Shown here: positions 3,896-43,654 of the stretch, piece after piece
How positions within the stretch are numbered: the stretch's first letter is position 1
Layout: each line of letters begins with the position of its first letter
Position numbers and translations under genes: made by a program
NCBI GenBank assembly: GCA_002269645.1
Contig: NIVC01004509.1
Span: forward strand, 1 to 43,654
Direction: 5' to 3'
From: Macrostomum lignano
Taxonomy: Eukaryota
Length of the DNA: 43,654 nt
The notes under the pieces: generated by a model
What the model was told of the DNA's origin: nothing
The model's database searches: none
What the model saw: the letters and a program-made list of their open reading frames with translations, nothing else

Positions 3896-4133
3896 CGTGG
3901 TGCCCCTTACTCTGCGTAAGCCACGGTAGTTTAGCTGCCAATGTTTTAAAAGTTCGCTACTGAAAGCACGAGTTTTGTAAATACCGTTTCAGTAGATTAT
4001 GTACCTTGTGCGTGCATTTTTACCAAGTGCGATTCCTAAGCCACTCTGATTTACTCACGGAATAAAAACATCACTTGAATCGCAGGCTGCGCTGGTTCTA
4101 CAACTGCATTGTCCTGAGTACCATTTGATCAAT

Positions 4134-7100: not shown

Positions 7101-8432
7101 CTTCGGCTAATTGCTTTCTTGAACTTTTCATCGACAGTAGGACCCATGATCGCTATGATGAAGTGCGTTGTTCTGAAAGACTTTCTGCCTTTTCTAAGCA
7201 TCGTTGGAATTATTTTTTACTCATTCGGAGTTTTCTACTTCAACTTGTTGTTTCCTGTGACTACGTCAGTGCAGAGTGAGCTCAGTGCGAACACCTACTG
7301 GTGGCGAGTGATTCTACAGATATTCACCCTGCCACTTGACCTGCTGTTTACAAAATTTGACCAGATCAACTTCGACACACCGCGTAGCGGCCTCGACCAG
7401 TCTGTAGGATCAGTTGCCAACGCGATCGGGCTCTCCTGGTTTCAAAATCTACTCGTGTTTGTCTTTCTCAGCCTGGTAAACATCGTGATGCTGTACCTGC
7501 TCATTGCCAGGTTCAGTAGCCGCGTCAATGAAATGCGTGACAAAGCGGTCGGGCTGTGGAGGCGGTCGTATTTTGAGCTGCTGCGTGAGCATCAGAGACG
7601 AGTGGCGCTCTTTACCTGCTGGTCTTGTGGCTGCTTCAGACGGTTGAAAGTTGATTGTGACAATGAGGTACGTCTGTTTGTTGTTGTTTATTGTAGTCAC
7701 CACGGGAAAAGACAGTAGAAATATTGTCCTCCCAGTAAAGCTATATGTGGCGGACAAAGATAGTAATCAGTTTTGCTTTTTGGACGCCAAAATGAGTGCC
7801 TGCAGTTAAAAATCAGTGTACTAACGACACTGATCCTAAAATATAATGTATGGTTTGTTCGTTTAGGAATTTTTCCCACCTTCCACTTTCCCTTGGACTT
7901 AATTTCTACATGTATTCGCGGTTGCAAGACGTAAGTATGCACTCAGTTCTGCAGCTATGTGCGTATATTCTACACTGCAACAGACAATGAAAAGTAAGTG
8001 ACGCAATTATTATAATCCTATGCTCGTATACAATGTGCATCATTGCAATCCAGATGCACGAAACACACGTAAATCGATAGAACTAACGAAAATGATTTAC
8101 CTTGGCGTATTATCAAAGCCTCACATTCGTCATGTAACTCACTCGCAATATAAACCCCTCGCTAGGGCTGGTGGAACAATGAGCATCAGTACCCGCTGGA
8201 GTACCTGCGTTATCTTGGCTTCCAAGCCAACCAGCTCCGCCACCTGCGCTACCAGCTGGGCAGTCTCTTGGAGCATCAGCCGCGTTGGCGCTCGGCATTC
8301 CAGCCGGCATTGCCGATGACAAGCGGTCAGACTTCCAGAATGCCGCAAGAAAATCGACGATACAATAATGCTCAGAAACCAAAAAGCTGGCTGCCTGTCG
8401 CTACTCAGACTGCAAGGAAGAAAAGGGGTTGA
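4134..8432 (+). CDS. Ankyrin-repeat TRP cation channel with TRPM-like TM/TRP-box region, paralog 1; exons 4134-7667 and 8166-8432 (about 1266 aa)
   Basis: Ankyrin motifs (TAAHFAA, TPLHYA, TLAHCAA, TVLHIA, TPIHFAA, ATCLHFAC), six hydrophobic segments, VNIVMLYLLIARFS and a TRP-box-like WRRSYF. The first ATG is at 4134 (the ORF track starts at a TTG). Donor GAG|gtacgt at 7667/7668 and phase-0 acceptor ctag|GGC at 8165/8166 give GWWNNEHQYPLEYLRYLGFQA...stop at 8432, homologous to the last exon of paralog 2. Confidence 0.88.
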
Positions 8433-11275: not shown

Positions 11276-12575
11276 TAGACAAAGGGATAGATAAAAGGTT
11301 TAAAAGTTTCTATATCAGTGTCTCTACAGAGTAGTTAGGATTAGTGAAACGCAGACTTCGTCCACAATTACAATTTGGAGGCGAATTAATTGAGAGTTCG
11401 GGTTCCGCTGAGAGTAGCGAGGTAATGCATCTCGAGGTAATGTAGGTAAGAGACACAGGACGCCGACCAAAAGTAGAAGTGAATAAGGGATCCTTATTCA
11501 AGGTATTAACTTAATACCTTGTAAAACTTATTGTATGCTTATTAAAAATTGAACATCTGTCTAATTAATGAATACGCGCAATCTTGAGATTTTTGCTTTC
11601 ATTCTTTATAATTATTAATTAAATATTCCAATATAGAGATTAAAGATCAGACAGTTCGTTTCATAAGAAAGATTTAATAAGGCTGTGATAGTCGGAGAAA
11701 TATGTAGATGTCTGTGAACTATAGATTTTACTGGTTGAAATCACACTATTGCCTTTACAAACACAACAGTAATACGACTAGTTGAAACCTTATTGCTGTC
11801 GCCATACAAGCTGTAGCTATTGCACCTCTTTAGCATCGCTTAGTAGCTGTAGAATAAGCTCACTTTGCATCAGTTGTATTCGTTCCGTACAAAGAGACGC
11901 AGCTGTGACAGCAACTCTATAGCAGCTATTTGTTGGGCTCGCTAGATTCAGGCATAGTTGCTGTCATTTTAGTTGCCTGGCCGAAGTGAAATATGATGAA
12001 TAAAAAGGAGAGGAGAGCGGCAGACCTTAAATAATGAATGAGTCGCTAAAGAGCACAGAACAAACAACAGACGGAGTAGATAAGATACAAGCCATAGTTA
12101 CTACGTTAGGTTTGATAGCGTCGACCGAGTCTGAATTATTCATAATCAATGTATGCTACTGATAAGTAGCAAGCAGAGAGTTCTTGGGCATTAGGAAACT
12201 TATGGTTAAATAATGATATTCATGAGAATTAGGATTCAAATGTAAATTTATTACGCTGTAATTAGAGTAAATACGAGCACACTGAAGTGATTAAGTAGCT
12301 CTAACTGCACTGTAAACACTGTAAACCGGTAATTCCGAATTCATTTCTCATTAATTATTTTTGATGATTTCGTGAATCTTAGGTAGATTCACTAGCGATT
12401 TATTAATCAATTCAAAGTCGTGTGCTTTGACTATCTTGAACATTGTTTGTTGACAATTCTATACTAACTTAGATTGATGGGTAAGCTTTCAAGCCAATCA
12501 ACTGTTTTTTTGTTGTTATCCGATCAATCATTTTGCTGGACAAATTAAAAAAAGGAATGAAACTCAAACTATAAA

Positions 12576-15500
12576 ATGCAAAAACCCATCACAGAAGCGG
12601 AAGCCCAGCGCGAGTGCGACTCAGCTGGTTGGATAATGCAGCAGCCGGAGTCGAGCGTGAGTGTTCAAGGAAAGCACGCGGTCTACTATGACAGCAGCTC
12701 TTGTGACGAGACCGACGGGGATACCCTGCCACCAGGACTTCCCGACGCGAGGAATACAGCTAGCAAACAATCTCTGAATTCGGAAAAATGTTCGGTTGAG
12801 AATTCAGACTTTCAAATGTCTGCAAACAAAGAAAAAGACACAGAAGACCCTCAAGACCCAGAAGACTCAGAAGAGTCTGAAGACCCAGAAAACACAGAAG
12901 ACCGAAAAGACCCATATTTGGAACTTCTTCAGTTTACAAAAGCAAAAAAATTCCAGAAGGCCCGGAATCTCTTAAAGCGAAATAAAAATTTTCGACCGAA
13001 AAAACTGGTGAAAGACGATACAGAAGAAGGATGCAAGAGAACTGCAGCGCACTACGCCGCAATGACTTCAGAGGGCGAAAAGACGCTTTTAAAAATTATA
13101 GAACACTTCAAGCATAAAAAAAACTGCATGCTGAAAAAAGACAGCCACCGGACAACGCCTCTGCATTACTGTATGAGTTGCTTCTCAAAAGAATCTCTGA
13201 AAGAGATTATTAAGATGGTGCAGAAACCCAAATACTTTTACAGAACAAACTGCGATGGCGATACCGTGTTCCATTTTGCCGCCGTCAACTTAAACCGCCC
13301 AGAAGAGAAAAATATTTCGACAGATTACTCGTGCGACTCAGACAGCAGCGAAGAAAACGCAGAGAAATGTGAAAAAATGAAGGTTAAGAACCAGGTAACC
13401 GACTACCAGGAAAGCGTCAACAAGGAAAGTAGCAGCAAGAAAAGTGATAGCGTGGGGGAAAGTAGCAGCACGGAAAGTGACAGCGAGGAGGAAAGTGACA
13501 GCGAGGAGGAAAGTTTTGGAGAATCCAGCTGCGTTCGCTGGATTCGCGGCGCGAGTTCCTGTTGCAGCGCTACTGTTACTCCTGATGACGGAAGCAATCA
13601 AGCAGCCAACGAAGGGGAACGCAAAGACGGTGATGAATCGCAAGATAAAACGAATGAAGAACCATCTACACTATTTGGGTTAGTTCTTGCAAAAATACGA
13701 GTACTCGTACATACTCGTAAAAAAGATGGCGGAGAAGTGAAAAAAGAGGCGGAAAGTGCAAAAAAAGTTCTCTTGTTAAAGAACAAAAAGGAACAGACAG
13801 TGCTGCATCTGGCTGCAATGCATGCAAGCCCTAAGGAACTCAGTTTTCTACTGAAAACTGCCTGCAATCTCTACAAAGCATGCTTGGAAGCACAGGACAG
13901 AGATGGCTACAACTTTTGTCATTATGCAGTTCAGAACGAGAACCAGAATGATAAAATTGTAGACCAACTGTTGTCCGTTCTTGACAAAGTGGAAAAAGAA
14001 AGGGTCTCCACACTGATAGGCGAATACGCTACTCAAAAAGCTCAAAAATCTCAACAAGCTCAAAAAGCTCAGAGACTCACGCTACTCCAGACAGCAATCG
14101 ACAGTAAAAGTTGCAAAGATAATACCGTAGTAAAAATCTACAAAAAGCTGAAAAGTCTTGGAAATGAAGGTAAGATCGACTTCAAAAAGTACATCGAACA
14201 ACAAAACAAGTGTGGAAACACGGCGCTTATTCTGGCTGCAATGAGTTTCAACAAAGAAGAGAAAAAGTACAAAACAGCGGGGAAGTTATTTCATCGCACA
14301 GATAGACAACACTGGGTTGTCATGAATAACCAAGGCAAAAGCGCGTTGCATCTTGCACTTCAAAGCTCGCAATTTACGGAACACTTGAGGAAATGGCACA
14401 AAAATACCTACAAGGAACTGATTTCTGAGAACACACTCGACAGAGATGGCAGATCGTGCCAATTCTACGCGTGTATGAGGTGGAATTTTGATCTTTTTCT
14501 GCCCAACAAAATTTCGCCGTGCACGGACTTCGACAAAAATACGCTGCTCCACGCATTGTTCTTCTATACCGGAAAACTTTCAGAGGACAGCCAAGACGAG
14601 CCTGACCAACGTGTTGAAAACTTTATGAAAGTATTTTTGAAAATTGCGTCAGTAACCGATATAGCAGCGGAAAATGACCTCGGTCAGAACTGCCTTCACG
14701 CTTCGACCCTAACAGAAGATACTTTGGAGAAGATACTGAGTAAAACAGCTTCGGTAGAAAATGAAGGGAAAGACTCAAACCAAGACAATACATGCTTCGT
14801 TGCGAGATTTCGCAAAGAATTAGAAAAGCTTCTAAAGGCATCAAACGGCTCTCATGCCATCCATTCGTTTGCGAGCAAATACAAGCTCAAAAAAGTAGCT
14901 CCACTATTGGCCAAACTGTCTGATTTGCCTACGGAGTCCCTGCTGCAGCTTACAGTAAGCAGCGGTCCGCTCAAGGGTGCCACCTGTCTGCACTTCGCCT
15001 GCGAGACCAACAATGAAGAGAACATCAAATGGCTTATGCGTCGAAGAAATTGGCAGGCCCTCGCCGCTGCTACGCACTCTAGGCTGACTGCTGTCGACTC
15101 CGCAAAAATCATTAGCCGAATGAAAGTTGTTGACGAAACGTTTAAACGCCAGGAAGAGAAATCTAAGCTAGAAATGCTCTGTCTGATCGATCCAGTTCAC
15201 CACGGACTCCCATTGCCGCGCAGAACTGAAGCTCGACAGCTTCTTATCACCATGCTGGAAAAAGCATCCCGCGATAAAGTTGCCAGAGGCAAAGATAGCA
15301 AGCAGAGTAAATTCATTGGAAACTTAAATGTTGACATTAGGGAAGGCAATGAAGATGATGAACGCACGGATGAGTGTATCTTGTTCCAGGCGTTAGATCT
15401 TGATTCGCCAATCATGTTCCGATGTGCTCTCCGACTGAAAAGGGTTACTCGAGAAGTTGAGGCACGACTTTGGGACTACTTGCAGCGCAAAAGCAACAAG

Positions 15501-18217
15501 GGAAAAGAAAAAAGAAAGAAACGAGTTGCCTCATTGGCCAAGTACAATGAGCTCAGTCCGATCCTTTCACCGACCGGATCATCGGAGATGCTGGTAGTTG
15601 ACGTCGCTCTGTTCCTCAGGAAACTGAAAATCTTGCCGGAAATTATTCTGACAAGGCAGTTTGAGTTGATCCCAGTGACGCTAAGCCTGCTATTGCACCT
15701 GAGGTTGGAAATTGTTAATAGCGAAGACACCACCACGCAAAATCAACTGCTGGAACTTAAAGCAAAGCTCCTTCAAATTGCAGTGAATGCTCTAGAGTGC
15801 TTGTACGCTAATATCGACAACGCTAAAGATAAGAAGCTATTAATGAAGTATTTAAACGGCAAAATTGGCAGTTCTCAAGCGAAAAAATCTGAAGAACAGC
15901 CTAATGGCAATGATCAAACGCAAAGCCAGCAGTCTGACAACGCCAAAAGAGCAGAAAATCCGGCCCCACTCGGTCCAAAATTTCCGTGTCGGTACAAGGA
16001 GAACCAAAGTTTCATCTACAGAGGGGATACTGAACAGAGAGAAACTGCGTCGAAGCGTCATGAATACAACGGTCAGAATAAAATGAAGAACGCTGTGGAG
16101 CCAGAAAAGGATACCGTCAATTACTACTCCGTTTACGAAATGGTCAAGCTGCTTGATTCAAAAGATATTTTTGCAACTGAGTGCATCCACCGACTCGTTA
16201 GAAATAAATGGAACGAAGCACCAAAATACAACTGCCTTTCTCCTAAAACCAACTACTCTATAAACTTCTTTGCATTCATTGCCTTTTTAGTGTTTTTTGC
16301 GTGGTACTTGATTGATTTCCGGGTGACTTTTGACTGGGCTATTCCAGACGTGATAATGGCACTCTACCTGGCTTCATTTACGCTGCAAGAATCGTTTGAA
16401 ATTTACAAGGGCGCTAGCAAACGACACTTTTTGAAAGGCAGCAAAGCATTTATGTTGCCGCGATATTTTAAGGAACAGCTCAATATGTTTGACTGTGCCG
16501 CGATTCTATTCCTGTGGATCGGTCTGGTCTGGAAGTGGATCATCTTCTCACACGGCATCTCCTACCCCACTGCCTATCCCTGCCAGATGGTTCTCAGCAC
16601 CGCATTCTTGCTGTGGGGCTTCCGGTCAGTGTCCTTCCTGAGCTACTTTGAGACCATCGGACCAGTGATCTCGATGATGCGCAGCCTGCTTCTAAAGGAC
16701 CTTTTGCCTTTCGCCGCTATCACCATTGTGATATTCTACTCCTCCAGCGTCTTCTTCTTCAATCTGCTCTTCTCAACTGTAACCGCTACCGCATCCGAGC
16801 GGGAGTCAGAAGGCTACGCCACCAGCGTGTTCCTACAAGTATTCACCCTGCCGTTCACCCTGTTCCTGGATAATCCTCCAGACTACACGGAATCTGGCGG
16901 TGGAACGGACCAAGAAATCGGATCCGTTGGCAACAAGACCGGCGTCACTGCCTTCAAAAATTTCTTCGTATTTGTCTTCCTGATTGTCGTCAACATAGTG
17001 ATGGTGAACCTATTGATCGCTCTGTTCAGCCTCCGCGTGAGCACAATGGTCAGCAGGGCCCGCTGCATCTGGAGGCGAAAGCACTTTCACCTGATGCAGG
17101 AGTTTCAGCATGCCAGTCCTGTCCCTCCGCCATTTTCATTTATTTACTACATTTTAGCCTTCTCCAGGGAGGTGAATACTCGTAAGGAACGGCAGAAAGT
17201 GAAAAGTCAAGAGATGGTAAGTCGGCGAGATTTTGCATGCTATTTTTTCATATTCAGAAACGGATCCAGGGTTTTTTAGGGGGTCGACTGTTTTATTTTT
17301 CAAGGGGTGAATTGGAGTTTCATGTCATGACGAGCTATAGAGTTTCGTCAGTGCTATTTCAGAGCAACAATTAAGTGACAGTTTTTTTATGGACTATTTT
17401 TTCTCGCGGTCAGTTGACCCCTTGACCACGATTGACCACAATGACTGCATACGTTGCAAAAACTATATTTTATTTCTTTCATTTTTTTTATTTTAACCTT
17501 ATCCCCACCACTGTACATGTACGAGCGTACTTCTTGTCAATTTGTGCACCACAGTCCGGACGAATTGTATTAGGTTTTGAGAACAAGTAGCTGCCCATGG
17601 CTTTGCGCAGTAGATAAGCTTGGGATTACAGAGGTGGGAAGTGAAGGAAGAATGATATAAGATTTAAATTTAAATGTAGCTATTCCGAATGCATTATACT
17701 TGGTCGCTGCTCGAACTTACGCATTCGAAATTCTGAACGAATTACCGTGGATGTAGGCCATTTTAAAATGTATTAGAGGCCATGTTATCGAGACCACCTA
17801 AAAACCTTCACTCCAAATACTACGGTAAAGCAGAACCCCAGAGGACGACTAGAAAACCTAGAGCGTTCCAATTTTTTTAAAACGTGCTTTCCTAAACTTC
17901 AGGAGTGGTGGAAGTCGGATGGCAGTTCATATCCAGAAGATTATCTGAAATTCCTGAGGATCCAAGCCAGCTGCTTCAGCAGAAACCGAGCCAATTTTCT
18001 GCAACAGCTGGAAGAGAACCAGCCGGACTTTGATGCTCTGAAGGCCTTCACACGCAACTCCCTCGCTCAAATGCGCGACAAGCTGGGAGAAACTATGGAC
18101 AAGCAGGAAGAGAAGCTGGAAGGGATGAACGATAGTTTGCGCTCGGCAATGCTGGACAGGATGAACAGCTTGGAGAGTAAAGTTGACCAGTTGGTTCAAC
18201 TAATTTCAAAGAGTTGA
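12576..18217 (+). CDS. Ankyrin-repeat TRP cation channel with TRPM-like TM/TRP-box/coiled-coil C-terminus, paralog 2; exons 12576-17216 and 17903-18217 (about 1651 aa)
   Basis: Ankyrin motifs (TAAHYAA, TPLHYC, TVLHLAA, SALHLAL, ATCLHFAC), LNMFDCAAILFLWIG, IGPVISMM, VNIVMVNLLIALFS and WRRKHFHLMQEFQHASPVPPPF. Donor ATG|gtaagt at 17216/17217 and acceptor ttcag|GAG at 17902/17903 give EWWKSDGSSYPEDYLKFLRIQA plus a coiled-coil-like tail (...DRMNSLESKVDQLVQLISKS*). Confidence 0.9.
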
Positions 18218-18899: not shown

Positions 18900-20003
18900 A
18901 CGTATGAAACATTCACCGACACTTGTTCAGACACTTCTACAGACACTTTAGTTTCTGTCATACGAATTGTAGGAACAAGCATTAAATTTGTTTATTCCTA
19001 ACAAACTATCAGTAAAATGCTTTATTTTAAGCTTTTTTTGCTTTATTTTATTAAATATGAATTAGGAAGTGTCCTGGACAAATTTAACATTCTTCTTCAC
19101 GTGAAGAGAATCTATGCAGAATAACAAATTTCATGATTCATATTTAATAAAATAAAGCAAAAAAGCTTAAAATAAAGCATTTTACTGATAGTTTGTTAGG
19201 AATAAACAAATTTAATGCTTGTTCCTACAATTCGTATGACAGAAACTAAAGTGTCTGTAGAAGTGTCCGAATAAGTGTCGGTGCAAGGACGACTTAAGTA
19301 GAAGGACGGGAAACCTCGTTTCTTAGAAAATTTTTGAAGGCACTTTTTCCCGAAAAAATACACTGCGGAGATAGGAAGTTTTCATTTTTTCAGCACAAAA
19401 ATTGCTATAACTTTTGATAGGAGGCAGATCCAGTGTTGATCTTTTGATATGTTGTGCCTTTTTTATTGCTCTATCGATATTTATAAAGCTTTCCGTTCAG
19501 AAAATTAGGATTCTATGTTAATTTTTTATTCTACGTATATTTTCATGTGTCTTGTGCTTGAAATACATTAGAATGCCACGGCTTGGCTCTTTGATTTTAT
19601 GAGTCTATTTTATCCTTCTTACCTGACTGTATAGCAAATAGTCGTAACATAGATGATAAAATAGATTCATAAAACCAAATATTAGAGCTGTGTCATGCAT
19701 TTTTGTGATTTTTAGATACAGGAAATATACGTAGAATAAAAAATTAACATAGAATCCTAATTTTCTGAACGGAAAGCTTTATAAATATCGATAGAGCAAT
19801 AAAAAAGGCACAACATATCAAAAGATCAACACTGGATCTGCCTCCTATCAAAAGTTATAGCAATTTTTGTGCTGAAAAAATGAAAACTTCCTATCTCCGC
19901 AGTGTATTTTTTCGGGAAAAAGTGCCTTCAAAAATTTTCTAAGAAACGAGGTTTCCCGTCCTTCTACTTAAGTCGTCCTTGTGTCGGTGAATGTTTCATA
20001 CGT
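18900..20003. mobile_element. Outer palindromic MITE (about 163-bp TIRs) interrupted by a second MITE
   Basis: Left arm 18900-19062 is the inverted repeat of 19136-19283 plus 19990-20003. Flanking direct repeat tgaatttt at 18892-18899 and 20004-20011 (8-9 bp TSD). Confidence 0.85.
19284..19981. mobile_element. Inner foldback MITE (259-bp TIRs starting CAAGG, 8-bp TSD; hAT- or P-like)
   Basis: 19284-19542 and 19723-19981 are near-perfect inverted repeats and the core is also partly palindromic. TSD tgtcggtg at 19276-19283 and 19982-19989. Confidence 0.9.
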
Positions 20004-32390: not shown

Positions 32391-35058
32391 ATGCACCTCT
32401 GTCAGTTGCGAGTTTCTGCAGCGTTGGCTCTGCTGCTCTGCTCGCTGGCAGCCGGCCAGGTCTCTCAGTGCGCTCCCGCTGACTCTCCGCGGCTCCGCTT
32501 CGTGGCGCAGCTCAGCGTGAACGGCTGCGCGCTGTTCGTGCACGACACGGGAGCGAGCGACGGTCCGCACTTGGCAGTCGAGCCGCTCATGTGCGTGACG
32601 GACAGCCTGAGAGGCATTGTTCCCCGATTCGACTTCATCACCCAGCAGCTGTACTTCAGCGTTCCTGTATTGATGAAGGATGCTGGGATGCTCGCAGAGG
32701 CTCAGCGTCAACTGCGGCATCTGTCACCGAGGTCTGTGAGCTTCGCCACGGTAACCAACATCAGCGTCTCAGCCGACACCCGCTCATCGGTTCGGGTTTT
32801 GTGCTTCCTGTGGACTCCAAATGAGCCAGTAGCCACTCTGAGACTCGGCTTTGGGCAAAAAATCAGATATGAAATTCTAAATCAGCGAAAAAACATGGAA
32901 GGACTGGTGAATATCAACCAAAAGAAAGTTTTTTTGTTAACACACGCCAAGAAAAACGAACGAGAAAAAATCGAAAATTCCACAATTGGGACTCTAAAAA
33001 ATGTAAAACTCTCACCTACCATTCTGTTGAATGGCTGTTTCCACGAAGTTCAGAGCAGCTTCATGCTGCAAAACGACAGCTTTAATGATGTCAGCGTGTA
33101 CAAGCAAAAATTCTTACCCGCGTGCCGACAGCTGCGGTTCACTCGGTAGTCAATCTCGAGAACTGCTCTGCTCGAGTGCACCAGAGACTCGACATCGAGG
33201 GTCACTTCCTCATCGAGCCTCTGCTGTGCCACAACATCCCCAGCTTGAGCAGCGAGTCAGTCAGGTATGACTACAGCCGAGACACGCACTACCTGAAGCA
33301 GCTTGATCTGGTGCTGCAAGATGAGGCCACACGCGATGCTGTGAGGACTCAGTTGGCCGACTTGTCGCCTCGCTCGGTCGATTTCATGCGGCTGTGGACT
33401 GCTGAGAGATCGGTGAGCTCTTCGTTGAGTGCTCGGTTCGAGGTCGGTCCGCTGATGGCGTCGGCAGACTGGAGGTCCGCTCAGCTGCGGCTGCTCTGCG
33501 GAAACTGGACGGAGTGCCGCGGTCTCAGGTTGGCTGACATGCTTGTGAACTTCTGATGCCTTATTCTAGACTAGAATTTACATGTATTCATGCGAATGTC
33601 ACTTTCAGTACGAGCCTAGAGTTTGTTACGGTTTTATTTTGTAGTGTTTTGGTTTTTAGCCGTCAAATTAGATAATGATCTGAATTAGTCCAAACAGCTG
33701 CCAACAGCTTCACTGACGCTGACTTCCAGGACTGCTGTGCTGACGGAGTCCGCTGACCTGTGGCGACACGTGCAGTGGCGGGTGACATCGCTGGTTGCTG
33801 AGCAGTGCCTCTTCAATTCCAGTCGAATCACTTCATCATGGAAAATGAAATCGTCTGTAGCAGCTATAGGTGCTCCAGCCCGAAGTCCTGTGCCAAGCTG
33901 CAATGCACCTCTGCTCAACACACAGCGTACCCTTCCAGTGCGTTTCAACTGCAGCCAGACGGTCGCTGCTTCCTGAAGATTCAGCAGCGACTTACTGGCA
34001 GAGTGAGTTTCCAACGAGACTGGACTGAGTACGAGACTGGCTTCGGTGACCGCACGGACTTCTGGATCGGTGAGCGGCAGTTTTGTATCAACTAATATTT
34101 GTGACGGGTGTCATAACAGATCTTGTCCATCTTATGACAGAGTGCTAGCTGACTCAAGCGCTTTCAATTGATGCGAGATGGATGCACAGCAGAGTACATT
34201 TACAGAAAGGAGTTAGATGTCTACTTTACACTAGGCTTGCTCCCTGGACCTCAGTGTAAATTCTGCTAACCCCCAACCCCATTGCGCCTCCTCTCCTCCG
34301 CGTGCCGTAGGGTTTCAAGCCTCTTGTTCACAGGCTCGGCCTGACTCCTATTGCTCCGACTCCAATTTTACTTTGCTGTCGCTGCTTCGCGCTCCCTGCC
34401 ACCCGGCTGCCTTTGCCTTCTGCCTCTGCTGGTGGGTTGCGGATCCTTCTGTTATCAGCTGAGCCATCAACTCATCATCAACTAATATGACACTAAAAAT
34501 GATGATCAAAAACGACTGCAGCCACTCAGAAGGAAGAGAGAGAGAGAAAGAGAGCGATCTCTGGTGGTTGTCCATAAGGAGCGTCACTGCAGGCTGACAG
34601 TGTGACTGAAGTGACTCAGACTCAGCCGCTCTCCTCCCGCAGGTCTCTCCGCCATCCACTCGCTCAGCCAAGGCGGCGCCACCCTCAGAGTGGAGATGAA
34701 GCTGTGGAACGGCTCTGAGCTGCATGCGGAGTACGCGGGATTCCAGGTGGGAGACGCCAGCACTGGGTATCGGATGACGTACCGAGAGATGCTGAGGGAC
34801 AGGTCCAGTATCCGTTTTGACGCTTTGGAGCCTAGCAAAGGCAGGCGGTTTTCCACGGCGAAGTGGGAACTGTGGAGTTCTGAATGCTCTGACAGAAATG
34901 GAGGGAGAAACAGAAGAAGTGGAGGCTGGTGGTTTACAAACTGCTATTATACTAACCCTAACGGAGCCTATTTTCCTTCAGTTGCTCCAGTTCCGGTCTG
35001 GTACTCTGGCTCTGCTCTGCTGTCTCTGTGTGAAGTGCGACTTATGCTGCAGGTTTGA
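32391..35058 (+). CDS. Secreted fibrinogen-related-domain (FReD) protein with two N-terminal repeats; exons 32391-33528, 33730-34069, 34643-35058; two 1-bp frameshifts (assembly errors or pseudogene)
   Basis: Signal-peptide-like start (MHLCQLRVSAALALLLCSLAAG). FReD motifs IQQRLTGRVSFQRDWTEYETGFG...FWI|GL..IHSL, LRVEM, FST, GGWWFTNCYYTNPNG. Splice phases 2 and 1 are consistent. Single missing bases near 33140 and 33957 break the frame. Confidence 0.8.
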
Positions 35059-35435
35059 GCATCAGAAATTAAGCAACTCAGTGAAGCAATCTGTTAATTA
35101 AAATACAGTTTTTATCGGATTTATGCTATTTTACCGGTATATTTTTAAACACTAATATCTAACCAGGGAAGCTTCCATAGAGGCTTCCCTGATCAAACCT
35201 TCCCAGATTATTAACCATAAAGTATAGATTTTTGAAATTTTTCTGGCTGTAAGAGATTTACTGACTAAGAACAGTCGAGCGTAAAATAACGGAAAACAAT
35301 AGTTTTTGTGATTTTCAACTCAATAAGCTCATATTTTCAACAATTTTTATTTAAATTAAGTAGTAGGGCGAATTATGATACTGCCGCACTAGCACTGGCG
35401 AGATAGGCGGCAATGCAAATGTACAGGGAAAAATA

Positions 35436-35811
35436 CACTGCGGAGATATGAGCCCTATCTCTGTGCATTGGGGACGGCTAAGCACTGCAGAGATATGAGC
35501 TCTATCTCTGTGCATTGGGGACGGCTAAGCACTGCAGAGATATGAGCTCTATCTCTGTGCATTGGGGACGGCTAAGCACTGCAGAGATATGAGCTCTATC
35601 TCTGTGCATTGGGGACGGCTAAGCACTGCAGAGATATGAGCTCTATCTCTGTGCATTGGGGACGGCTAAGCACTGCAGAGATATGAGCTCTATCTCTGTG
35701 CATTGGGGACGGCTAAGCACTGCAGAGATATGAGCTCTATCTCTGTGCATTGGGGACGGCTAAGCACTGCAGAGATATGAGCTCTATCTCTGTGCATTGG
35801 GGACGGCTAAG
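35436..35811. repeat. 47-bp tandem array (8 units) with an internal palindrome, subterminal in the Polinton
   Basis: Unit cactgcagagatatgagctctatctctgtgcattggggacggctaag starts at 35436, 35483, 35530 and so on to 35765. A 39-bp block is duplicated at 35375-35413 and 35835-35873. Confidence 0.95.
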
Positions 35812-36166
35812 CACTGCGGAGATAGAGGCGATTCATGATACTGCCGCACTAGCACTGGCGAGATAGGCGGCAAAAAGGATATAGGAAAAATACACTGCGG
35901 AGAGGATCCTATCTCTGTGCATTGGGAACGGCTAAACATTGCAGAGATAAGAGGGGTGGCCAATCTCTGTGCTCTGTGTTAGGGTAAGGTTATAAAGTTT
36001 TACAACTGCACAGAGGACGGCTGGTGTTGCTTACCTGGATAAGGGGACGGGGGGGATACACTAATTACAGCCGGTGGCCTCTATAACGGTAAAGTAATTA
36101 TTACCTGAGCATGGCTGGATGTTCATATACGATATGATAAGGAGAGGGCATGCATGTACAAATTAC

Positions 36167-36173
36167 TATATAA
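36167..36173 (+). promoter_or_regulatory. Candidate TATA box for the first Polinton ORF
   Basis: cTATATAAgcagcc about 105 bp upstream of ATG 36277; motif only. Confidence 0.45.
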
Positions 36174-36276
36174 GCAGCCACGCAAGTACAAATAAACAAA
36201 TAGACAAAAACAAAATTGTATAAAAGGATTTTTAAAAACCTTACTACTTCTAAAAAACAACTCTTTCTCTTTCAAA

Positions 36277-37572
36277 ATGAAAACTTTTAAAAGTTGTCAT
36301 AGAGACCTCTATGAGGTCTGTATAAGCTGCGAAGTGTGCCTGCTTGGAGGCGTGTCCCCAAGACACCACGAGAATGAGAACTGTCTGGTCTCATGCTGGT
36401 TGGCATGCGACCAGTGCGGCACCGTCGAAGCTCTGCAGGAGGGAAAAATTCCAGCATATCATCGAGGACACAGGATCGTCAGCGATGACAAGAAAAAGCA
36501 AGAAAGTAACCGCTGGAAAGTAATCCGCGCCATCAAAAAGAGCAACGAGAGAGAAAAGAAGATCCAGCAGAAAAAGGGAGCCAGCAGGAGTCTGCTATCA
36601 GCTCACTTGAGTCAAGTAATTGACTCTACATTGAAGAGGATGAGGCCAAGCGGGTCTTCAGCAGCTGCAGAATTTGAAGTTGAGCTGTCTGCTGGAGTCG
36701 AGGCTGCTGGAGTCGAGGCTGCTGGAGTCGAGGCTGCTGGAGTCGAGGCTGCTGGAGTCGAGGCCGCTGGAGTCGAGGCTGCTGGAGTCGAGGCTGCTGG
36801 AGTCGAGGCTGCTGGAGTCGAGGCCGCTGGAGTCGAGGCTGCTGGAGTCGAGGCTGCTGGAGTCGAGGCTGCTGGAGTCGAGGCTGCTGCTGTCATAAAC
36901 TTCATAGAGGAAGATGTCCTGGATCAGTTCCTCAGGGAATTCAACGCTGGTCAGCAGCAGCAGCAACCTGTCTCTTCGGTTCCGGTGATTGCTGGAAAAC
37001 AACTTCATCTAATTGAAGACGACCACGAAATGGAAATCCTAGAAGAGGAGGGCAGCGACAATGAGTCGCATAATGCAATTGTGCCACCTGCAGCTCCAGC
37101 CGCCCCAGCTGCTCTGGCCGCCCCAGCTGCTCTGGCCGCCCCAGCTGCTCTGGCCGCCCCAGCTGCTCTGGCCGCCCCAGCTGCTCTGTCCGCCCCAGCT
37201 GCTCTGGCCGCCCCAGCTGCTCCAGCCGCCCCAGCTGCTCTGGCCGCCCCAGCTGCTCTGGCCGCCCCAGCTGCTCCAGCCGCCCCAGCTGCTCTGGCCG
37301 CCCCAGCTGCTCCAGCCGCCCCAGCTGCTCTGGCCGCCCCAGCTGCTCTGGCCGCCCCAGCTGCTCTGGCCGCCCCAGCTGCTCCAGCCGCCCCAGCTGC
37401 TCTGGCTGCCCCAGCTGCTCCAGCCGCCCCAGCTGCAGCCTCTACAATTCCAGCTTCTCAATCCGAAACTCCACCCGTGCCAGCTGGAGTTGCCTTCTTT
37501 CTGCCTCCTGTCGGCGGGGCTGGGTACGAGGTAACGATTTTCGAAAATCGTATTAGAATTGTGCCGCTGTGA
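36277..37572 (+). CDS. Polinton ORF1: Cys/His-rich putative zinc-binding N-terminus, basic stretch, 13x AGVEA and about 18x APAAL(A) repeats; possibly the first exon of the polymerase transcript
   Basis: 431-aa ORF with CISCEVC...C...C...CDQC...H. In-frame 15-bp repeats at 36691-36885 and 18-bp repeats at about 37100-37437. Donor-like GAG|gtaacg at 37530/37531. Confidence 0.7.
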   Translation: MKTFKSCHRDLYEVCISCEVCLLGGVSPRHHENENCLVSCWLACDQCGTVEALQEGKIPAYHRGHRIVSDDKKKQESNRWKVIRAIKKSNEREKKIQQKKGASRSLLSAHLSQVIDSTLKRMRPSGSSAAAEFEVELSAGVEAAGVEAAGVEAAGVEAAGVEAAGVEAAGVEAAGVEAAGVEAAGVEAAGVEAAGVEAAGVEAAAVINFIEEDVLDQFLREFNAGQQQQQPVSSVPVIAGKQLHLIEDDHEMEILEEEGSDNESHNAIVPPAAPAAPAALAAPAALAAPAALAAPAALAAPAALSAPAALAAPAAPAAPAALAAPAALAAPAAPAAPAALAAPAAPAAPAALAAPAALAAPAALAAPAAPAAPAALAAPAAPAAPAAASTIPASQSETPPVPAGVAFFLPPVGGAGYEVTIFENRIRIVPL

Positions 37573-38457
37573 CTAAGCAATTTTTGTACTTTTTTGCTTT
37601 CTGTGTGGAGTGAGAAATCTACCCATTTATTGCAATTATTGCTAAAACTTTATTTCAACTAGCTTTTTAAAGTTGAAAGTAGGTACATTAATTAATGATT
37701 TGATCATCTCATAACTCTGTATTCGCTTCTAGGAATCTTGCTTATAAGTTTTCAGTTTTCATTTCCAAATTAGTTTTAAAAAAAGCTCGTAGCTCGTAGT
37801 GGCAACCAATATTTTTTTGGTATCCGAGGTAAAAAAAATTATTTGAAAAGTAGGTGAAACATTATACAGTTGAATTTAACAAATTAAAATCAACATAACA
37901 TACTTTCAATAAATTGGTGATGGTTTCGTATGCTTGGTGCGATTGATTAGGTATAATTTTCTTTCTACTGCTTTGACGCGGTGTTTCCTCATTCTTTAAT
38001 TATTGAACTTTTCAGCTATATTTCTGCTTCTAAACTCTCGTCTGTATTTTTAATTCATTGTTCCATGCATTGTTTATTGACTATGATTGCACCATGTGAA
38101 TTCGATAATTTTTTAAAAAAATATATACATATAATGTCAGCATTTTTCCACTCGGTGATTGGTTTGTTAATTAACTATTGGCTTCATTTTGCATTTTTTA
38201 CCGATTGAGTCTGCGTAGGAGGCAAATAGAAACGAACTTTTACGAATAGGGATCAATAGAATATGCATGCAGAGAGCTAGCTTAAGGGAGAACCAAAAAA
38301 ATATAACCAGCATCTACTAGCTTGTAAGTGTGGATATTGTACCAGTATTGCAGCAATAAAGACTTACGAAAAAGATTTCCAATATTCACTCCCAGTTGCT
38401 TATGACACTCAGTTGCAGCCAGTAAACACTGTCAGCTTTTAACTGCTTGCCTTTTCT

Positions 38458-38875
38458 ATGGTTGAGCACTCCTGGATGGAGCAGGAGAATGACCACTCAT
38501 GGATGGAGAATGACCACTCATGGATGGAGAATGACCACTCATGGATGGAGAATGACCACTCATGGATGGAGAATGACCACTCATGGATGGAGAATGGCCA
38601 CTCGTGGATGGAGGATGACCACTCGTGGATCGAGTATGACCACCCTTGGGTGGACCATGACGTCAGCAGCGAGTCAGCAGCCAGCAGCGAGTCGGCAGCC
38701 AGCAGCGAGTCGGCAGCCAGCAGCGAGTCGGCAGCCAGCAGCGAGTCAGCAGCCAGCAGCGAGTCAGCAGCCAGCAGCGAGTCAGCAGCCAGCAGCGAGT
38801 CAGCAGCCAGCAGCGAGTCAGCAGCCAGCAGCGAGTCAGCAGCCAACAGCGAGTCGGTGACTGATGCACACCAAG
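38458..38875 (+). CDS. Repeat-encoded exon (ENDHSWM repeats and 10x SSESAA) probably spliced to the polymerase
   Basis: Open frame from ATG 38458 to a consensus phase-1 donor CAAG|gtaagt at 38875/38876, in phase with the acceptor ccag|GT at 39107/39108. Confidence 0.55.
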
Positions 38876-39107
38876 GTAAGTGCCTTTATTTATCCTTTTC
38901 AACTTACTTAAAAATTTTCTTATCAATGCGATGTATATTATGCAGTCTAAAATTTTAGTCCAAAGAATGGGAGAAGGGGAGATAAAAGACTTTATACCGG
39001 TAGGGTTGTACATGTATGCTTGGGTACAGACGTTTAGTTTAGTATCTTTGATATTTGAAACTATAGGCAGCAAAAAACAAAAATATTATCCTAAAACCAC
39101 AAACCAG

Positions 39108-42100
39108 GTTCAACAGTCAGCTTCAGCAGAGTTGCCCAAGCCTATGATCAATCACTGGAAATACTGAGGCTCAGATCGAGTCACCCAGACACGCTTCCGT
39201 CAGAATTTTTTGTCCAAGCTGGAGACAAAATTATTGAGGCAGTTCAGCAAAGAATTTCAAGACATCATTACAAAGTTCAGCTAAATGCGAATATTCGAAT
39301 GGTCCGAATAAGAGATGGGGAGATGCTTGCCGAAGAGGACAGATGGATAAGCTGTAAAATGCAGGCCCTAGACCTAGGTGGTGAAGCAGGCCGTTTAAAC
39401 AACTGGTTGATTGAGCAGGAGCAGGAGTTGGAGAGGATCTGTAGTATGATTAATACGAACGGCAGTGGCTGGACAATTAAACAAATTAATTTTCTAGACA
39501 TCAACCTTGCCAGGTACAATCCAATTCGATTTCGCCAGGGCAGAGCCGTTAGATTCAATCTTCCTGCCAGTTTGAAGAACAAAAAGGCTGTTATCAATCC
39601 ACCGAGCACAGGCAAAGACTGTTTCCTGTACGCCTGTCTCGCTGCACTGCACAGCGCCGATCCGAAAGTTCAGAAATTGCCCAACAGAATATCCTCTTAC
39701 GATGAATGGTTGCGTGAGCTGGACTTTGCAGAAATCTCCATGCCAGTGAGTGTCGCTGATATCGATCGCGTCGAGTCTAACAATCCAGGAATTTGCATTT
39801 CTGCGTTCTCTTGGCAGCAGGGCAGTGTGACTCTTCTCCGTCGCCGCAAGCATGAGTCAGATGACCGAAGACACCTCATGCTTTTGCTAGTTAAAGACAG
39901 CTACGGATCGGAGCACTGGTGTGCAATTACTAATTTTGACAGGTTAATGAACAGTCGTAATGGTCCCGCCATGAGGAAGTGGTGCACGAAATGTTTAACA
40001 TCATTTTATAGCAACGAGAGGCTTCAAGAGCACAGGAACGAATGCAGCATTACTGCAGAAAATCCTGTCAAAGAAACGCTTCCAGTTCCAGGACAGAATG
40101 AAATAAAGTTCCGAAACTGTCAAAACACTGTCAGTCCACCATTCGTTGCCTATGCCGACCTGGAAGCCATTTTGCGAGCGAACACAGACCCTGCTAACCT
40201 GATCTCAAAGCATGAACCATGTGCAGCAGCTTTTCTTGCAGTGCCTCGTGAAGGCATGACAGGACCTCCGCTTAGGCCAGAAGGAGACATGTACAAGGTC
40301 TTTTGCAATGCGGACCCTGATGAGTGTATCCTTGGTTTTCTCAAATCTCTTGAAAGCCTGGCTCAGGATATATTTCACTGGAACCAGAAGCATAGCCACC
40401 AGCCGGCTGACCGATCATCCGCGACCGTCATGGATGATTTCAATTCTGCTGAGGTATGTCACTACTGCAAGAAGAACTTTAAAAGTTCTACAGATAAACA
40501 TTTTGACCACGATCATTTAAATGGACAGTACAAAGGTGCAGCATGTCAAGAATGCAACCTGCGAGCACAGCTCCGACGCCGGTTTCTGCCCCTGGTTTTT
40601 CACAACTTAGGCGGCTACGACCTTCATCTTCTACTTTCCACTGCGCTTGGGAGCATGAAAAATTGGAAACTTAGTGTTGTTCCGCAATCATCCGAGCGAT
40701 ACTTGTCACTAAGGGCGGAATTCCCTGTTGCAAGTTACGTAAAGAACGGAAAAGTTGTGCCAATCATGTTTACAATTCAGTTCATCGACTCGCTCTGCTT
40801 TTTGAAGGGAAGTTTGTCCAATTTGTTTGCTAATCTTCCCGAAGCTGAATGCAAGCTGACAATGCAAATGCTTGAGTCAAGACCACATCTTTCAAGAGAG
40901 CTACTTCGAAAAAAAGGGATTTCCCATATGATTACCTCACAGGATTTGAGATTCTCGAGCAGTCGGTTTTGCCACCTAAAGATGCTTTTTTTTAATCGAC
41001 TTTCCGATAGGGGAATTTCCGACGACGACTACAATAGAGCAAGAGCGGCATGGGCGGCATTTCAATGCAAAAGTTTGAAGGATTATATGCTCGCCTATCT
41101 TGAAATGGATGTAAGGCAGCTGGCTGACATTTTCGAGACATTCCGACAGGCCAGTCTGAAAGAGGACGGATTGGATCCGGTACACTACTTTACTACTCCT
41201 GGTTTGTCTTACGACTCAGCTCTAAAGTCGACTGGAGTGGTTCTAGAGCAGCTGACTGATGCTGACATGTATCATCTGTTTGAGAAGGGAATACGAGGAG
41301 GCATGTCCTTCATTAATGTGCATTGCGTCAAAGGTAATAATCCTAGCTTGCCAGGTTATGATGATCAGCAAGAGAGTGTAAGCCTCATGCCGATCGATAT
41401 GAACAACTTGTATGGCTTTGCCCTGTCGCTTCCGCTTCCATGCAGGGAATTCAGGTGGGTACCGGAACAGGAAATCCAGTTCTGGGACTCCAATCGGTTT
41501 CTGTCACTCAATCCAGAAGCCGAGATCGCCTACCTTGTTCAACTCGATCTAGAATACCCAGCTGAGATTCACGATTCGACTCAGGAGTTACCGTTTGCAC
41601 CTGAAAAATCAAAACCACAGCCAGATCAATTCTCGCCGTACATGGCCGAACTATGGAAAGAGATTGCTGAACAGCGAACTGGCAATGCTGAAGCTAAGTT
41701 TCAAGCAACGGAGAAGCTTCTACTCACCTGTACCGACAAGGATTCTTACGTAGTTCACAGCACCGTTTTAAGATTTTACCTGCAACACGGAATGCGGATC
41801 AAGTGCGTCAAAAAAATGATTTCGTTCAAGCAGGAAAATATTTTCGCGCCGTACATTGCCAGCAACAATGAAAAAAGAGCTTTGGCAACTTCCGAGTTTG
41901 CTAAGGATTTTTACAAATTGAAAAACAATTCTCTCTTTGGAAAAACTATGGAAACGTTCGAAAAAGATGCGATGTTCGAATTTGCACTAACCAGACTCAA
42001 GCAGAAACTTGCGCCTCTCGACCAAACTGTGCCGCATTCTCGATTATCAATGAGTCGTTGAGCATTTTTCAGCTCAAAAAAGATAAAGTCACGCTTGACA

Positions 42101-42741
42101 AGGCCATTTTCGTTGGCCAGGCAGTTCTCGATCTCTCTAAGATGGCCATGTACAGCCTACTATATGACAGGCTCCGACCGCTGTTCTGTCATTCAGACGG
42201 TTCCAGAGACATGATGCTTTGCGGAGGTGATACTGACTCATTTTTTCTAGCTTTCAAGAATCATGATTTAACATCGGAGGTAATCCCGAAGCTTAGAGAG
42301 GAAAAAATACTTGACACATCCAACTATTCTCGAGACCATCCGCATTTCTCTGAAGAGTTAAAAGGAAAGCTGGGCTGCGTTAAAGATGAATCTGCTGGTG
42401 GAATTTACCAGGAGTGGATTCTTTTGCGTCCAAAACTTTATTCGTTTCTCCCTGCCGAGAATTCGAGTGCAAAGATCAAGAAAACTGCCAAAGGCGTGAA
42501 GCAGTCAAATTTCGCATGCGAACTATGTCGACGCGTTCGAGTCCAAGCAAGAGCAGATGGTTGCCATGACAGCGATTGTTTCAAGAAACACGAAATCTTC
42601 ACGTCGGTCATGGAGAAAAGAAGCCTATCGGTGTGGGAGGATAAGCGAGTGTGGCTTAGCAGTAATCGAAGCCTGCCCTACGGACACTATGCGCTGACGC
42701 CCGCATCCCACGATCAGCTGAAGCGCATCCGACTGGTCTAG
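39108..42741 (+). CDS. polB: Protein-primed family B DNA polymerase of Polinton type with an endonuclease VII-like insert; about five 1-bp indels
   Basis: GSGW...YNP N-terminal motif, ExoI YADLEA, DHDHLNGQYKGAACQECN, ExoII HNLGGYD, FIDS, alternative-frame KGIFPYDY, ExoIII YLEMDV, IRGG, DMNNLYG, KLKNNSLFGK, DTDS, LRPKLYS and DKR. The frame is open upstream of ATG 39299 back to 39095. The frameshift at about 41953 splits the two ORF-track entries (39299-42061 and 42058-42741). Confidence 0.93.
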
Positions 42742-43320
42742 TGCGGGTGTTTAACAGACTGTTTAGTACTTTTTCTTGCTTTTAGAGTTGTTTAAATTGC
42801 CAAATTCTGTTTTAAATGTAGTGACTTGCATGTAGTAACTTTTACAAATTTGTATGCTTGGCTAATTGCGCTAGATTTAGCTGTCAATTTGTTTTTGCGG
42901 CGTGAAATATTGATATCAATTTAAGTTTTACTTTTTATAAAGCTGTGGCAAGTGCGCTCATACAATATTAATTCATTTTTGTTTGCTTTGTGTACTACTT
43001 GTTTAAAATGTGTTTTTGGTTTTTATCTGACACAAATTGTTCCTGTAAATTCAATCAGCGTTTTAATCATATTTTCTCTATCACTTTTCTATTTCTCTTC
43101 TCTCGGTGCACATCGTTTGTTATAACGATGGTAGTATTGTTTACTTTCGGATTTGATATGCGTTTTGCGATACTTTTGGTGATGGGCTAAATACGTTTTT
43201 GAAGTGTTCCATAGCTGTCTACCTGGGAAAATGAATGTAAAGAATACAAGTTTATCCTTTTATTCACTTTTCACTAATCATTGAAATATTTGCGGCAAAT
43301 TGCTTGACTTGACTTTATTT

Positions 43321-43654
43321 TTATTCAATGGAAAGAACTACATTGAGTAGACGCATGCTATCGGTATGCAACTGATTCAAGGACCGAGCTCCACTGAGAA
43401 CAAAAGAGCCGCTGTGAAAAAGCAGACATTTACAAAAGTTTAAATTGAAAATTAAAGCAGAAAAGGATTCTGGTTCATATTCGGCGTTTGGGATAATTGA
43501 TTTTAACATTAATAAGGAAAGTGCGGAATGAACTGGAGCTGTCCATGAGCAGTAATAGTTTTAATTCGAACACAAATTGTTGATGAGGCAGCAGTTGAGC
43601 CGGCACCTCCGATGCAGCATAGCACGAAGCGACGGGCAGCCCTTTTGGCGTCTG
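43321..43654 (-). CDS. TATA-box-binding-protein-like gene (5' truncated by the window; 1-bp frameshift near 43520)
   Basis: AEYEPESFSALIF...CLLFHSGSFVLSGARS matches TBP repeat 2 (YEPELFPGLIY...LLIFVSGKVVLTGAK). The adjacent upstream frame reads DAKRAARRF...VRIKTITAHGQLQF, matching the end of repeat 1 and start of repeat 2 (AARKY...KIQNMVGS). Confidence 0.8.

Follow-up and report, generated by a model that had tools for sequence, protein, structure and literature searches.

A divergent TATA-binding protein in the capsid gene block of Macrostomum lignano Polintons and a candidate promoter word for late genes

The window analysed here is one whole contig of 43,654 nucleotides from Macrostomum lignano (NIVC01004509.1, assembly GCA_002269645.1), which carries the left part of a Polinton/Maverick element and stops at position 43654, inside a gene for a TATA-binding protein (TBP). 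Features of the element are collected in Table 1. On the host side, two long single-frame ankyrin-repeat genes of 1222 and 1572 aa lie at 4050-7718 and 12561-17279 on the forward strand, the second also with an ion-transport domain and TRP channel-like. At 19284-19981, two 259-bp arms form a perfect inverted repeat around a 180-bp spacer, which is probably a small transposon, and a fibrinogen C-domain exon (34615-35058, +) stands about 300 bases left of the Polinton insertion.

Table 1. Polinton features in the window, positions 35,359 to 43,654
Feature	Position	Strand	Remarks
Left terminal inverted repeat (TIR)	35359..35700 (right limit approximate)	+	Starts AGTAGT; 47-bp tandem unit inside; start identical in 6 other copies
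Canonical TATA box TATATAAG	36167..36174	+	110 bases before first ORF
Cys-rich ORF with Ala/Pro repeats, adjoining left TIR	36277..37572	+	
Short repeat-rich ORF upstream of pPolB	38458..38958	+	Possible first exon of polymerase gene
pPolB with endonuclease VII-like insert	39095..42741	+	Two frames in window copy
Three AATAAA hexamers, at and past the TBP stop	43259..43325	-	Likely polyadenylation signals
TBP gene, 3' part (about codons 80-190 of 190)	43321..43654	-	Pfam TBP; full frame in other copies; fold

The right end of the window copy is outside the assembly, and target duplication and TIR pair were read from a complete copy. This uninterrupted copy, the one examined, is 16.7 kb long with a 6-bp target-site duplication, and its TIRs form a 341-bp inverted match of 99.7% with ends AG...CT. 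One terminal unit more at one end is expected from slide-back in protein-primed replication; a copy on G000:C530 has one AGT unit more at its right end than at its left. One strand reads, from the left, TIR, Ala-rich ORF, repeat ORF and pPolB. The other reads, from the right TIR, a PC4-like gene, integrase, probable minor capsid, a basic ORF, probable major capsid, protease, ATPase, a 112-aa ORF, a PZ-like gene, an exonuclease-like ORF and TBP, the last gene of the capsid block. Pfam recognizes pPolB by PF03175 (E 6e-11, above cut-off) and PF02945 (E 1e-5), and in another copy the gene is one open frame of 1152 aa; the weak PF03175 match would fit the divergent Beta polymerase class of adintoviruses. 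Between the repeat ORF and pPolB stand a splice-donor-like word near 38876 and an acceptor-like word at about 39068, and the sequence suggests a polymerase gene spliced across both ORFs. In another copy, Pfam supports the rve integrase (E 3e-13) with chromo domain (E 1e-5), an adenain-type protease (Peptidase_C5, E 7e-5) and also PC4. The packaging ATPase is a P-loop ORF with weak Pfam matches, 34% identical to a metagenome Polinton ATPase. Capsid candidates are ORFs of 427 and 272 aa with no Pfam match, the 427-aa ORF being conserved across lineages; the names major and minor capsid are presumptive, given from size and position. The element is thus a multi-copy Polinton/Maverick with TIRs, target duplication and core genes, the set found in the complete copy, and it extends past 43321. 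A PC4 coactivator-like protein (L024:7163-7936, -; metagenome L074:261-797, +) lies behind a canonical TATA box in the element and in metagenome relatives.

On the minus strand, the frame 43324-43560 hits Pfam TBP above cut-off (E 2e-10), as the initial annotation had read it from the letters; the 47-aa frame 43512-43652, searched on its own, gave no Pfam match. That annotation had further joined the two frames by adding one T. A two-repeat TBP is indeed encoded, with both repeats present in full copies, and the idea of a single break did not hold. Single-base gaps disrupt the window copy, which the contig end also cuts: compared with another copy, it is short of 1 base in the 43000-43499 bin and 4 in the last ~150 bases (455 versus 460 bases over the TBP region), and because these five bases are missing, the middle of the joined peptide is out of frame. 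The clustered losses at the contig end are likely read errors. A DNA search returned 134 candidates; the 40 scored copies are 97-100% identical. In 32 of them a single open frame runs from Met across the two TBP repeats, which makes the join needless, the full frame being missing in the other 8. Short-read contigs of four runs contain no indel over the TBP span among the matches listed, and a database protein labelled Macrostomum lignano is 99% identical to the element TBP. Assembled contigs of four runs (run type guessed), placed on a 10-kb copy, give flat cover with no splice or leader joint; in one run a contig ends where pPolB stops and depth over the spacer is low, to which, as a single study, we give no weight. 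The gene is convergent to pPolB at a stop-to-stop distance of 579 bases, in agreement with the ~580 bp given earlier, and this linkage holds in other copies and families.

The exonuclease-like ORF (L024:426-1274, -), named from a motif and presumably of that class, overlaps the TBP gene (L024:185-754, -) by ~110 codons in a different frame. The overlap is open in 7/8 families, with synonymous change far lower there than in the free part. A DEDD-like/TBP fusion, present as a database model and at 2 loci, was rejected as a frameshift product; most copies have separate frames.

The 190-aa product matches both repeats of the Pfam TBP family (PF00352) at E 1e-24, and also matches 35 solved TBP sequences. 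AlphaFold models it as a TBP saddle with a pLDDT of 93.8, and the best 40 Foldseek rows listed are all TBPs (TM 0.78-0.84 to solved TBPs), so that profile and structure both bear out the first reading. Pairwise dN/dS among 8 families ranges from 0.07 to 0.56, mostly 0.1-0.25: the protein is under purifying selection. It is a bare core with no N-terminal extension, and its identity to the host TBP core is ~25% (24-28%). Host TBP and a TRF2-like gene exist separately in the genome, and AU tests reject a clade with either host TBP (p 5e-6) or host TRF2 (p 3e-4). The element TBP is not a host TBP/TRF2 paralogue, as had been proposed from its divergence; in the tree it stands apart from both, with four giant-virus sequences on a separate branch. 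A single origin of all Polinton TBPs is not claimed, since the supporting branch of the quick tree has an SH-aLRT of 85 and the careful tree gives no resolution, with long-branch warnings.

Numbered as in yeast TBP, residues N69, V71, T112, L114, E186, E188, F190, L205 and F207 are kept; changed are F99>P, F116>Y, V122>S, T124>C, N159>T, V161>T, L189>S, P191>S, V203>K and T215>S, substitutions that are nearly invariant across families. Two of the four DNA-intercalating Phe remain (F190, F207), F116 being Tyr and F99 Pro with a Trp beside it; W47 was considered as the replacement of F99 and dropped, the register placing P48 at that site. Central base pairs are contacted by the symmetric Asn/Thr pairs of TBP; N69 of this set is kept, and the other three members read N159>T, T124>C and T215>S. 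Acidic stirrup residues of TBP serve TFIIB contact, and both E186 and E188 are kept next to L189>S, E188 in nearly all element TBPs. Judged from these residues, contact of the element TBP with host TFIIB is likely, as is the reading of a non-canonical word by its altered DNA-binding face; F99>P, F116>Y and L189>S may weaken DNA kinking and TFIIB contact. PMC1636458 states that the C-terminal repeat of TBP reads the 5' half of the box, that P191 enforces the first (5') T, that V203 belongs to the three sites changed in the altered-specificity mutant TBPm3, and that G at positions 6-7 is not selected by wild-type TBP. Metagenome TBPs with G at word position 2 have V203T and a changed L205, as in TBPm3, a match noticed post hoc; the P191 state does not follow the first base of the word in all lineages.

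We then come to the promoters of these genes. The end genes (Ala-rich ORF, PC4-like) have the canonical boxes TATATAAG and TATAAAAG, their counterparts in related families have such boxes too, and a canonical-type box precedes the exonuclease-like gene. Most genes of the integrase/capsid block sit behind CTTAAGAA, which occurs almost solely on the sense strand. In 10 of 13 related stretches, CTTAAGA is found 5-6 times in sense and 0-2 times in antisense; the count is 2-3 in two partial stretches and 0 in one that belongs to another lineage. Shuffled sequences contain it 0.4-0.8 times on average (maximum 3-5), and host-side DNA 0.2 times per 7 kb. The word precedes the ATG by 59 bases at the integrase, 44 at the minor capsid, 110 at the major capsid, 45 at the ATPase (second Met), 46 at the 112-aa ORF and 80 at TBP; the basic ORF has TTTAAGAA 148 bases upstream, and the exonuclease-like ORF has TATATAAGAA ~50 bases upstream. 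In the related stretches compared, the protease gene has no preceding word and PZ no conserved one. TTA-AGA is used at only 3/19 Leu-Arg codon pairs, exactly those that form the word inside upstream genes, with ~0.4 expected from codon use. Canonical and variant classes overlap in a shifted register, TATATAAG containing TATAAG. The TBP gene is behind the late word here and behind a canonical box in lineage A2 and several metagenome elements. Many metagenome TBP genes (L073-L086) show TATA with a TCATT initiator-like word ~25-30 bases downstream.

The initial annotation had placed TBP genes outside the core Polinton set; the gene is not confined to one element and was found in every capsid-bearing lineage tested here. 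Among 18 non-host TBP loci fetched, 17 adjoin pPolB, capsid or integrase genes, and some of the families have a pPolB that is no more than 42-55% identical. Loci picked by packaging ATPase alone have a TBP-like ORF in 10/10 cases (7 distinct sequences, profile E 5e-59 to 4e-3), of which Pfam recognizes 5/7 distinct sequences, one of them below cut-off. The one lineage B TBP tested folds as TBP (pLDDT 95, TM about 0.7); support for that of lineage C is weaker (feature score 0.93, low recognition). Five further loci were picked by capsid gene, three with TBP and two on stretches that end before its place. In all, a capsid-bearing Polinton devoid of TBP was sought in 15 further loci and none was found, 13 having a TBP-like ORF and 2 being on stretches too short. 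A divergent TBP is present in every capsid-bearing lineage tested in this genome. Sister TBPs lie beside a Polinton integrase in 13/15 metagenome contigs, one of which is a nearly whole element with the other polymerase class. Scans of viral contigs with element TBP, sister TBP, ATPase and capsid protein gave no match; one scan returned 4 giant-virus loci, which branch apart. A further protein search gave only 5 hits, none of them named. In lineage B (L089:6293-7015, -; L089:1026-1601, -; L099:994-1659, -) a deoxynucleoside kinase adjoins TBP and a dUTPase follows pPolB; several of its TBP frames have no obvious start Met and may be spliced.

Capsid-less pPolB loci of the other polymerase class have TBP in 0/10 cases and no integrase, capsid or ATPase match; the ten are probably one lineage. 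A capsid-less, integrase-less Polinton-like family (G000 C135, C24, C41, C986, C1159, C428; loci L110-L115, L118-L119, L122-L123, L126-L127) has TIRs at its ends and spans about 8-11 kb. Its pPolB appears to contain introns, the members read for it have a PC4-like gene, and no match to integrase, ATPase, capsid or TBP was seen. Strand-biased TAAG words occur in capsid-less elements too, 5-9 in 4/6, as splice-donor-like and GATAAG repeats within the polymerase region.

A TATA-like word ranks first among the 7-mers in 10/12 capsid blocks, and it differs by lineage: TTAAGAA/CTTAAGA (3/3), TATAAGC/ATAAGCA (5/5), ATAAATA (1) and GTAAGAA (1/2). In the other 2/12 blocks a TATA-like word ranks third, and the corrected P per single block is 0.002-0.2. 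Lineage words stand 10-120 bases before the ORF start in 55 of 91 cases with 15 expected, the words having been chosen after seeing the data. A TAAG core is common to the words of lineages A, A2 and B and of metagenome elements; the word of lineage C, TATAAATA, is canonical.

From the gene with its fold, selection and residue changes, and from the enrichment, strand, position and co-occurrence of the words, all observed directly, we infer the binding, timing and recruitment of an early/late switch. We consider it fairly probable that an altered-specificity TBP drives the late genes via the lineage word, by analogy to herpesvirus TBP mimics with TATT. Host TBP would read the canonical TATA boxes, so that the end genes (Ala-rich ORF and PC4-like coactivator) start first. 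The variant word, predicted to be bound poorly by host TBP, would keep capsid, protease, ATPase and integrase genes off until element TBP is present. The overlapping upstream gene has a TATA(T/A)TAAGAA-type box, from which a first supply of element TBP could come; leaky use of the TBP gene's own word is the other possible source. The protein would then boost its own expression, bind CTTAAGAA and recruit host TFIIB and Pol II, switching the late genes on. Each Polinton lineage would have its own TBP-word pair. The redirection of host Pol II proposed in the initial annotation may apply, and that annotation had named TATATAA at 36167 as an example of its targets. The box is there, as the canonical box of an end gene; TATATAAG at this site is probably an early promoter read by host TBP, and CTTAAGAA is the likelier target. 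Several observations weigh against this late switch. Among the loci examined, no Polinton with capsid genes lacked a TBP and could act as a control, and both the word and the TBP might simply accompany the capsid block; the TBP gene itself is behind the late word here, a start-up problem; and the capsid-less elements, probably one lineage, also have strand-biased TAAG words. Likewise adverse are the changes at F99, F116 and L189, the protease gene with no word, the canonical word of lineage C, the 2/12 blocks where the word is not top, the block P of 0.002-0.2 and the post hoc choice of words.

Alternatively, the word is a genuine late promoter that a host factor (TBP, TRF2 or some other) recognizes, the element TBP having another DNA job such as bending the termini in replication or packaging. 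The loss of one intercalating Phe and the change of both central H-bond threonines would suit such a job, and the accessible part of PMC12209930 offers a precedent in Giardia TBP, which lacks such residues and prefers single-stranded DNA; the canonical word of lineage C and the host's own TBP and TRF2-like gene point the same way. However, lineages within one host genome have different words, a pattern that fits a single host reader badly; nearly all element TBPs retain E188, the acidic stirrup residue for TFIIB; and capsid-less elements replicate with pPolB and TIRs and no TBP. We regard this alternative as unlikely. Quite unlikely is the version of the initial annotation, in which the protein is a general supplement to TBP and reads the element's ordinary TATA boxes, the one at 36167 among them: canonical boxes do stand at both ends and before the exonuclease-like gene, and TATATAAG does contain TATAAG, but capsid-less elements have the same canonical boxes before the PC4-like gene with no TBP, and P191 and V203, which shape recognition of the 5' TATA, are changed. 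We give very little credence to a decoy that titrates host TFIIB, NC2 or Mot1, or obstructs host promoters, and so dampens host transcription or defence while driving no element genes. The glutamates that face TFIIB are indeed more conserved than the DNA face, as a decoy would have it, but DNA-face substitutions that are invariant across families suggest new specificity rather than decay, and the lineage-specific upstream words and the link to the capsid block are left unexplained. A decayed or hitch-hiking host TBP copy devoid of present function, to which the broken window copy and the 8/40 copies with no full frame could point, is scarcely credible and largely refuted by purifying selection, 24-28% identity to host TBP, AU rejection of host grouping and presence in several deep lineages and metagenome Polintons.

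Returning to the altered-specificity TBP, in its wider form the model holds that much of the animal Polinton diversity has a divergent TBP as a regular component of the capsid module, one that has been overlooked. Each lineage would co-evolve a private TBP-promoter pair that acts on host Pol II as an early/late switch made of a single protein, in the manner of a sigma factor; for this claim we judge the chances to be even. Polintons have capsid genes and no RNA polymerase, and a TBP with a private word would offer them a concrete early/late switch and possibly a virus-like programme. If true, the lineage TBP-word pairs are natural experiments on TBP-DNA reading; together they would form a natural set of orthogonal TATA codes and might serve as orthogonal promoter tools.

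Compared with known systems, the element shares with Polintons/Mavericks (adintoviruses; Starrett et al. 2021, PMC8502044) the TIRs, 6-bp duplication, pPolB, RVE integrase with chromo domain, adenain-type protease and ATPase, and putatively capsid genes. Unlike here, the accessible part of that paper does not describe TBP as an adintovirus gene and gives neither a promoter word nor a late-gene role; one figure legend names a TBP-like gene for related MELD viruses. Neither TBP nor TATA appears in a term search of the main text of PMC10748475, PMC11131425 and PMC8097293. No published account of Polinton TBPs or their promoters was found, subscription papers and Repbase lying outside the search, and the figure legend is the only earlier mention found. 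Cellular and archaeal TBP and TRF2/TLF (PF00352) have the same two-repeat saddle with N69, T112, L114, E186, E188, F190, L205 and F207, and the element TBP differs from cellular TBP/TRF2 in having no N-terminal extension, in the ten listed substitutions and in grouping with neither host gene. Giant viruses (Nucleocytoviricota) and mirusviruses likewise encode TBP homologues; those with TBP mostly encode their own RNA polymerase, and the four sampled giant-virus sequences form a branch separate from element TBPs. In the accessible part of PMC4893493, a TAAG core marks baculovirus late genes. There it is read by a viral RNA polymerase, whereas no polymerase gene of this kind is seen in these elements, and the likeness may be chance.

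The closest parallel is with the herpesvirus vTBPs (KSHV ORF24, EBV BcRF1, HCMV UL87), where, in the accessible parts of PMC6541308 and PMC4893493, a virus with no polymerase of its own runs its structural genes on host Pol II by a TBP-like protein and an altered TATA word (TATT). Those proteins are ~10% identical to TBP; they contact Pol II directly and act in a six-protein viral complex. A Pfam search of the element ORFs returned no family of the herpesvirus late complex, and no partner set was identified; in contrast to the vTBPs, the element TBP is a bare core of ~25% identity with the TFIIB stirrup kept. At most, it works like a herpesvirus vTBP and is not a member of that family. If the model is true, Polintons would represent a second, much simpler route to the same solution of a viral TBP with an altered TATA word.
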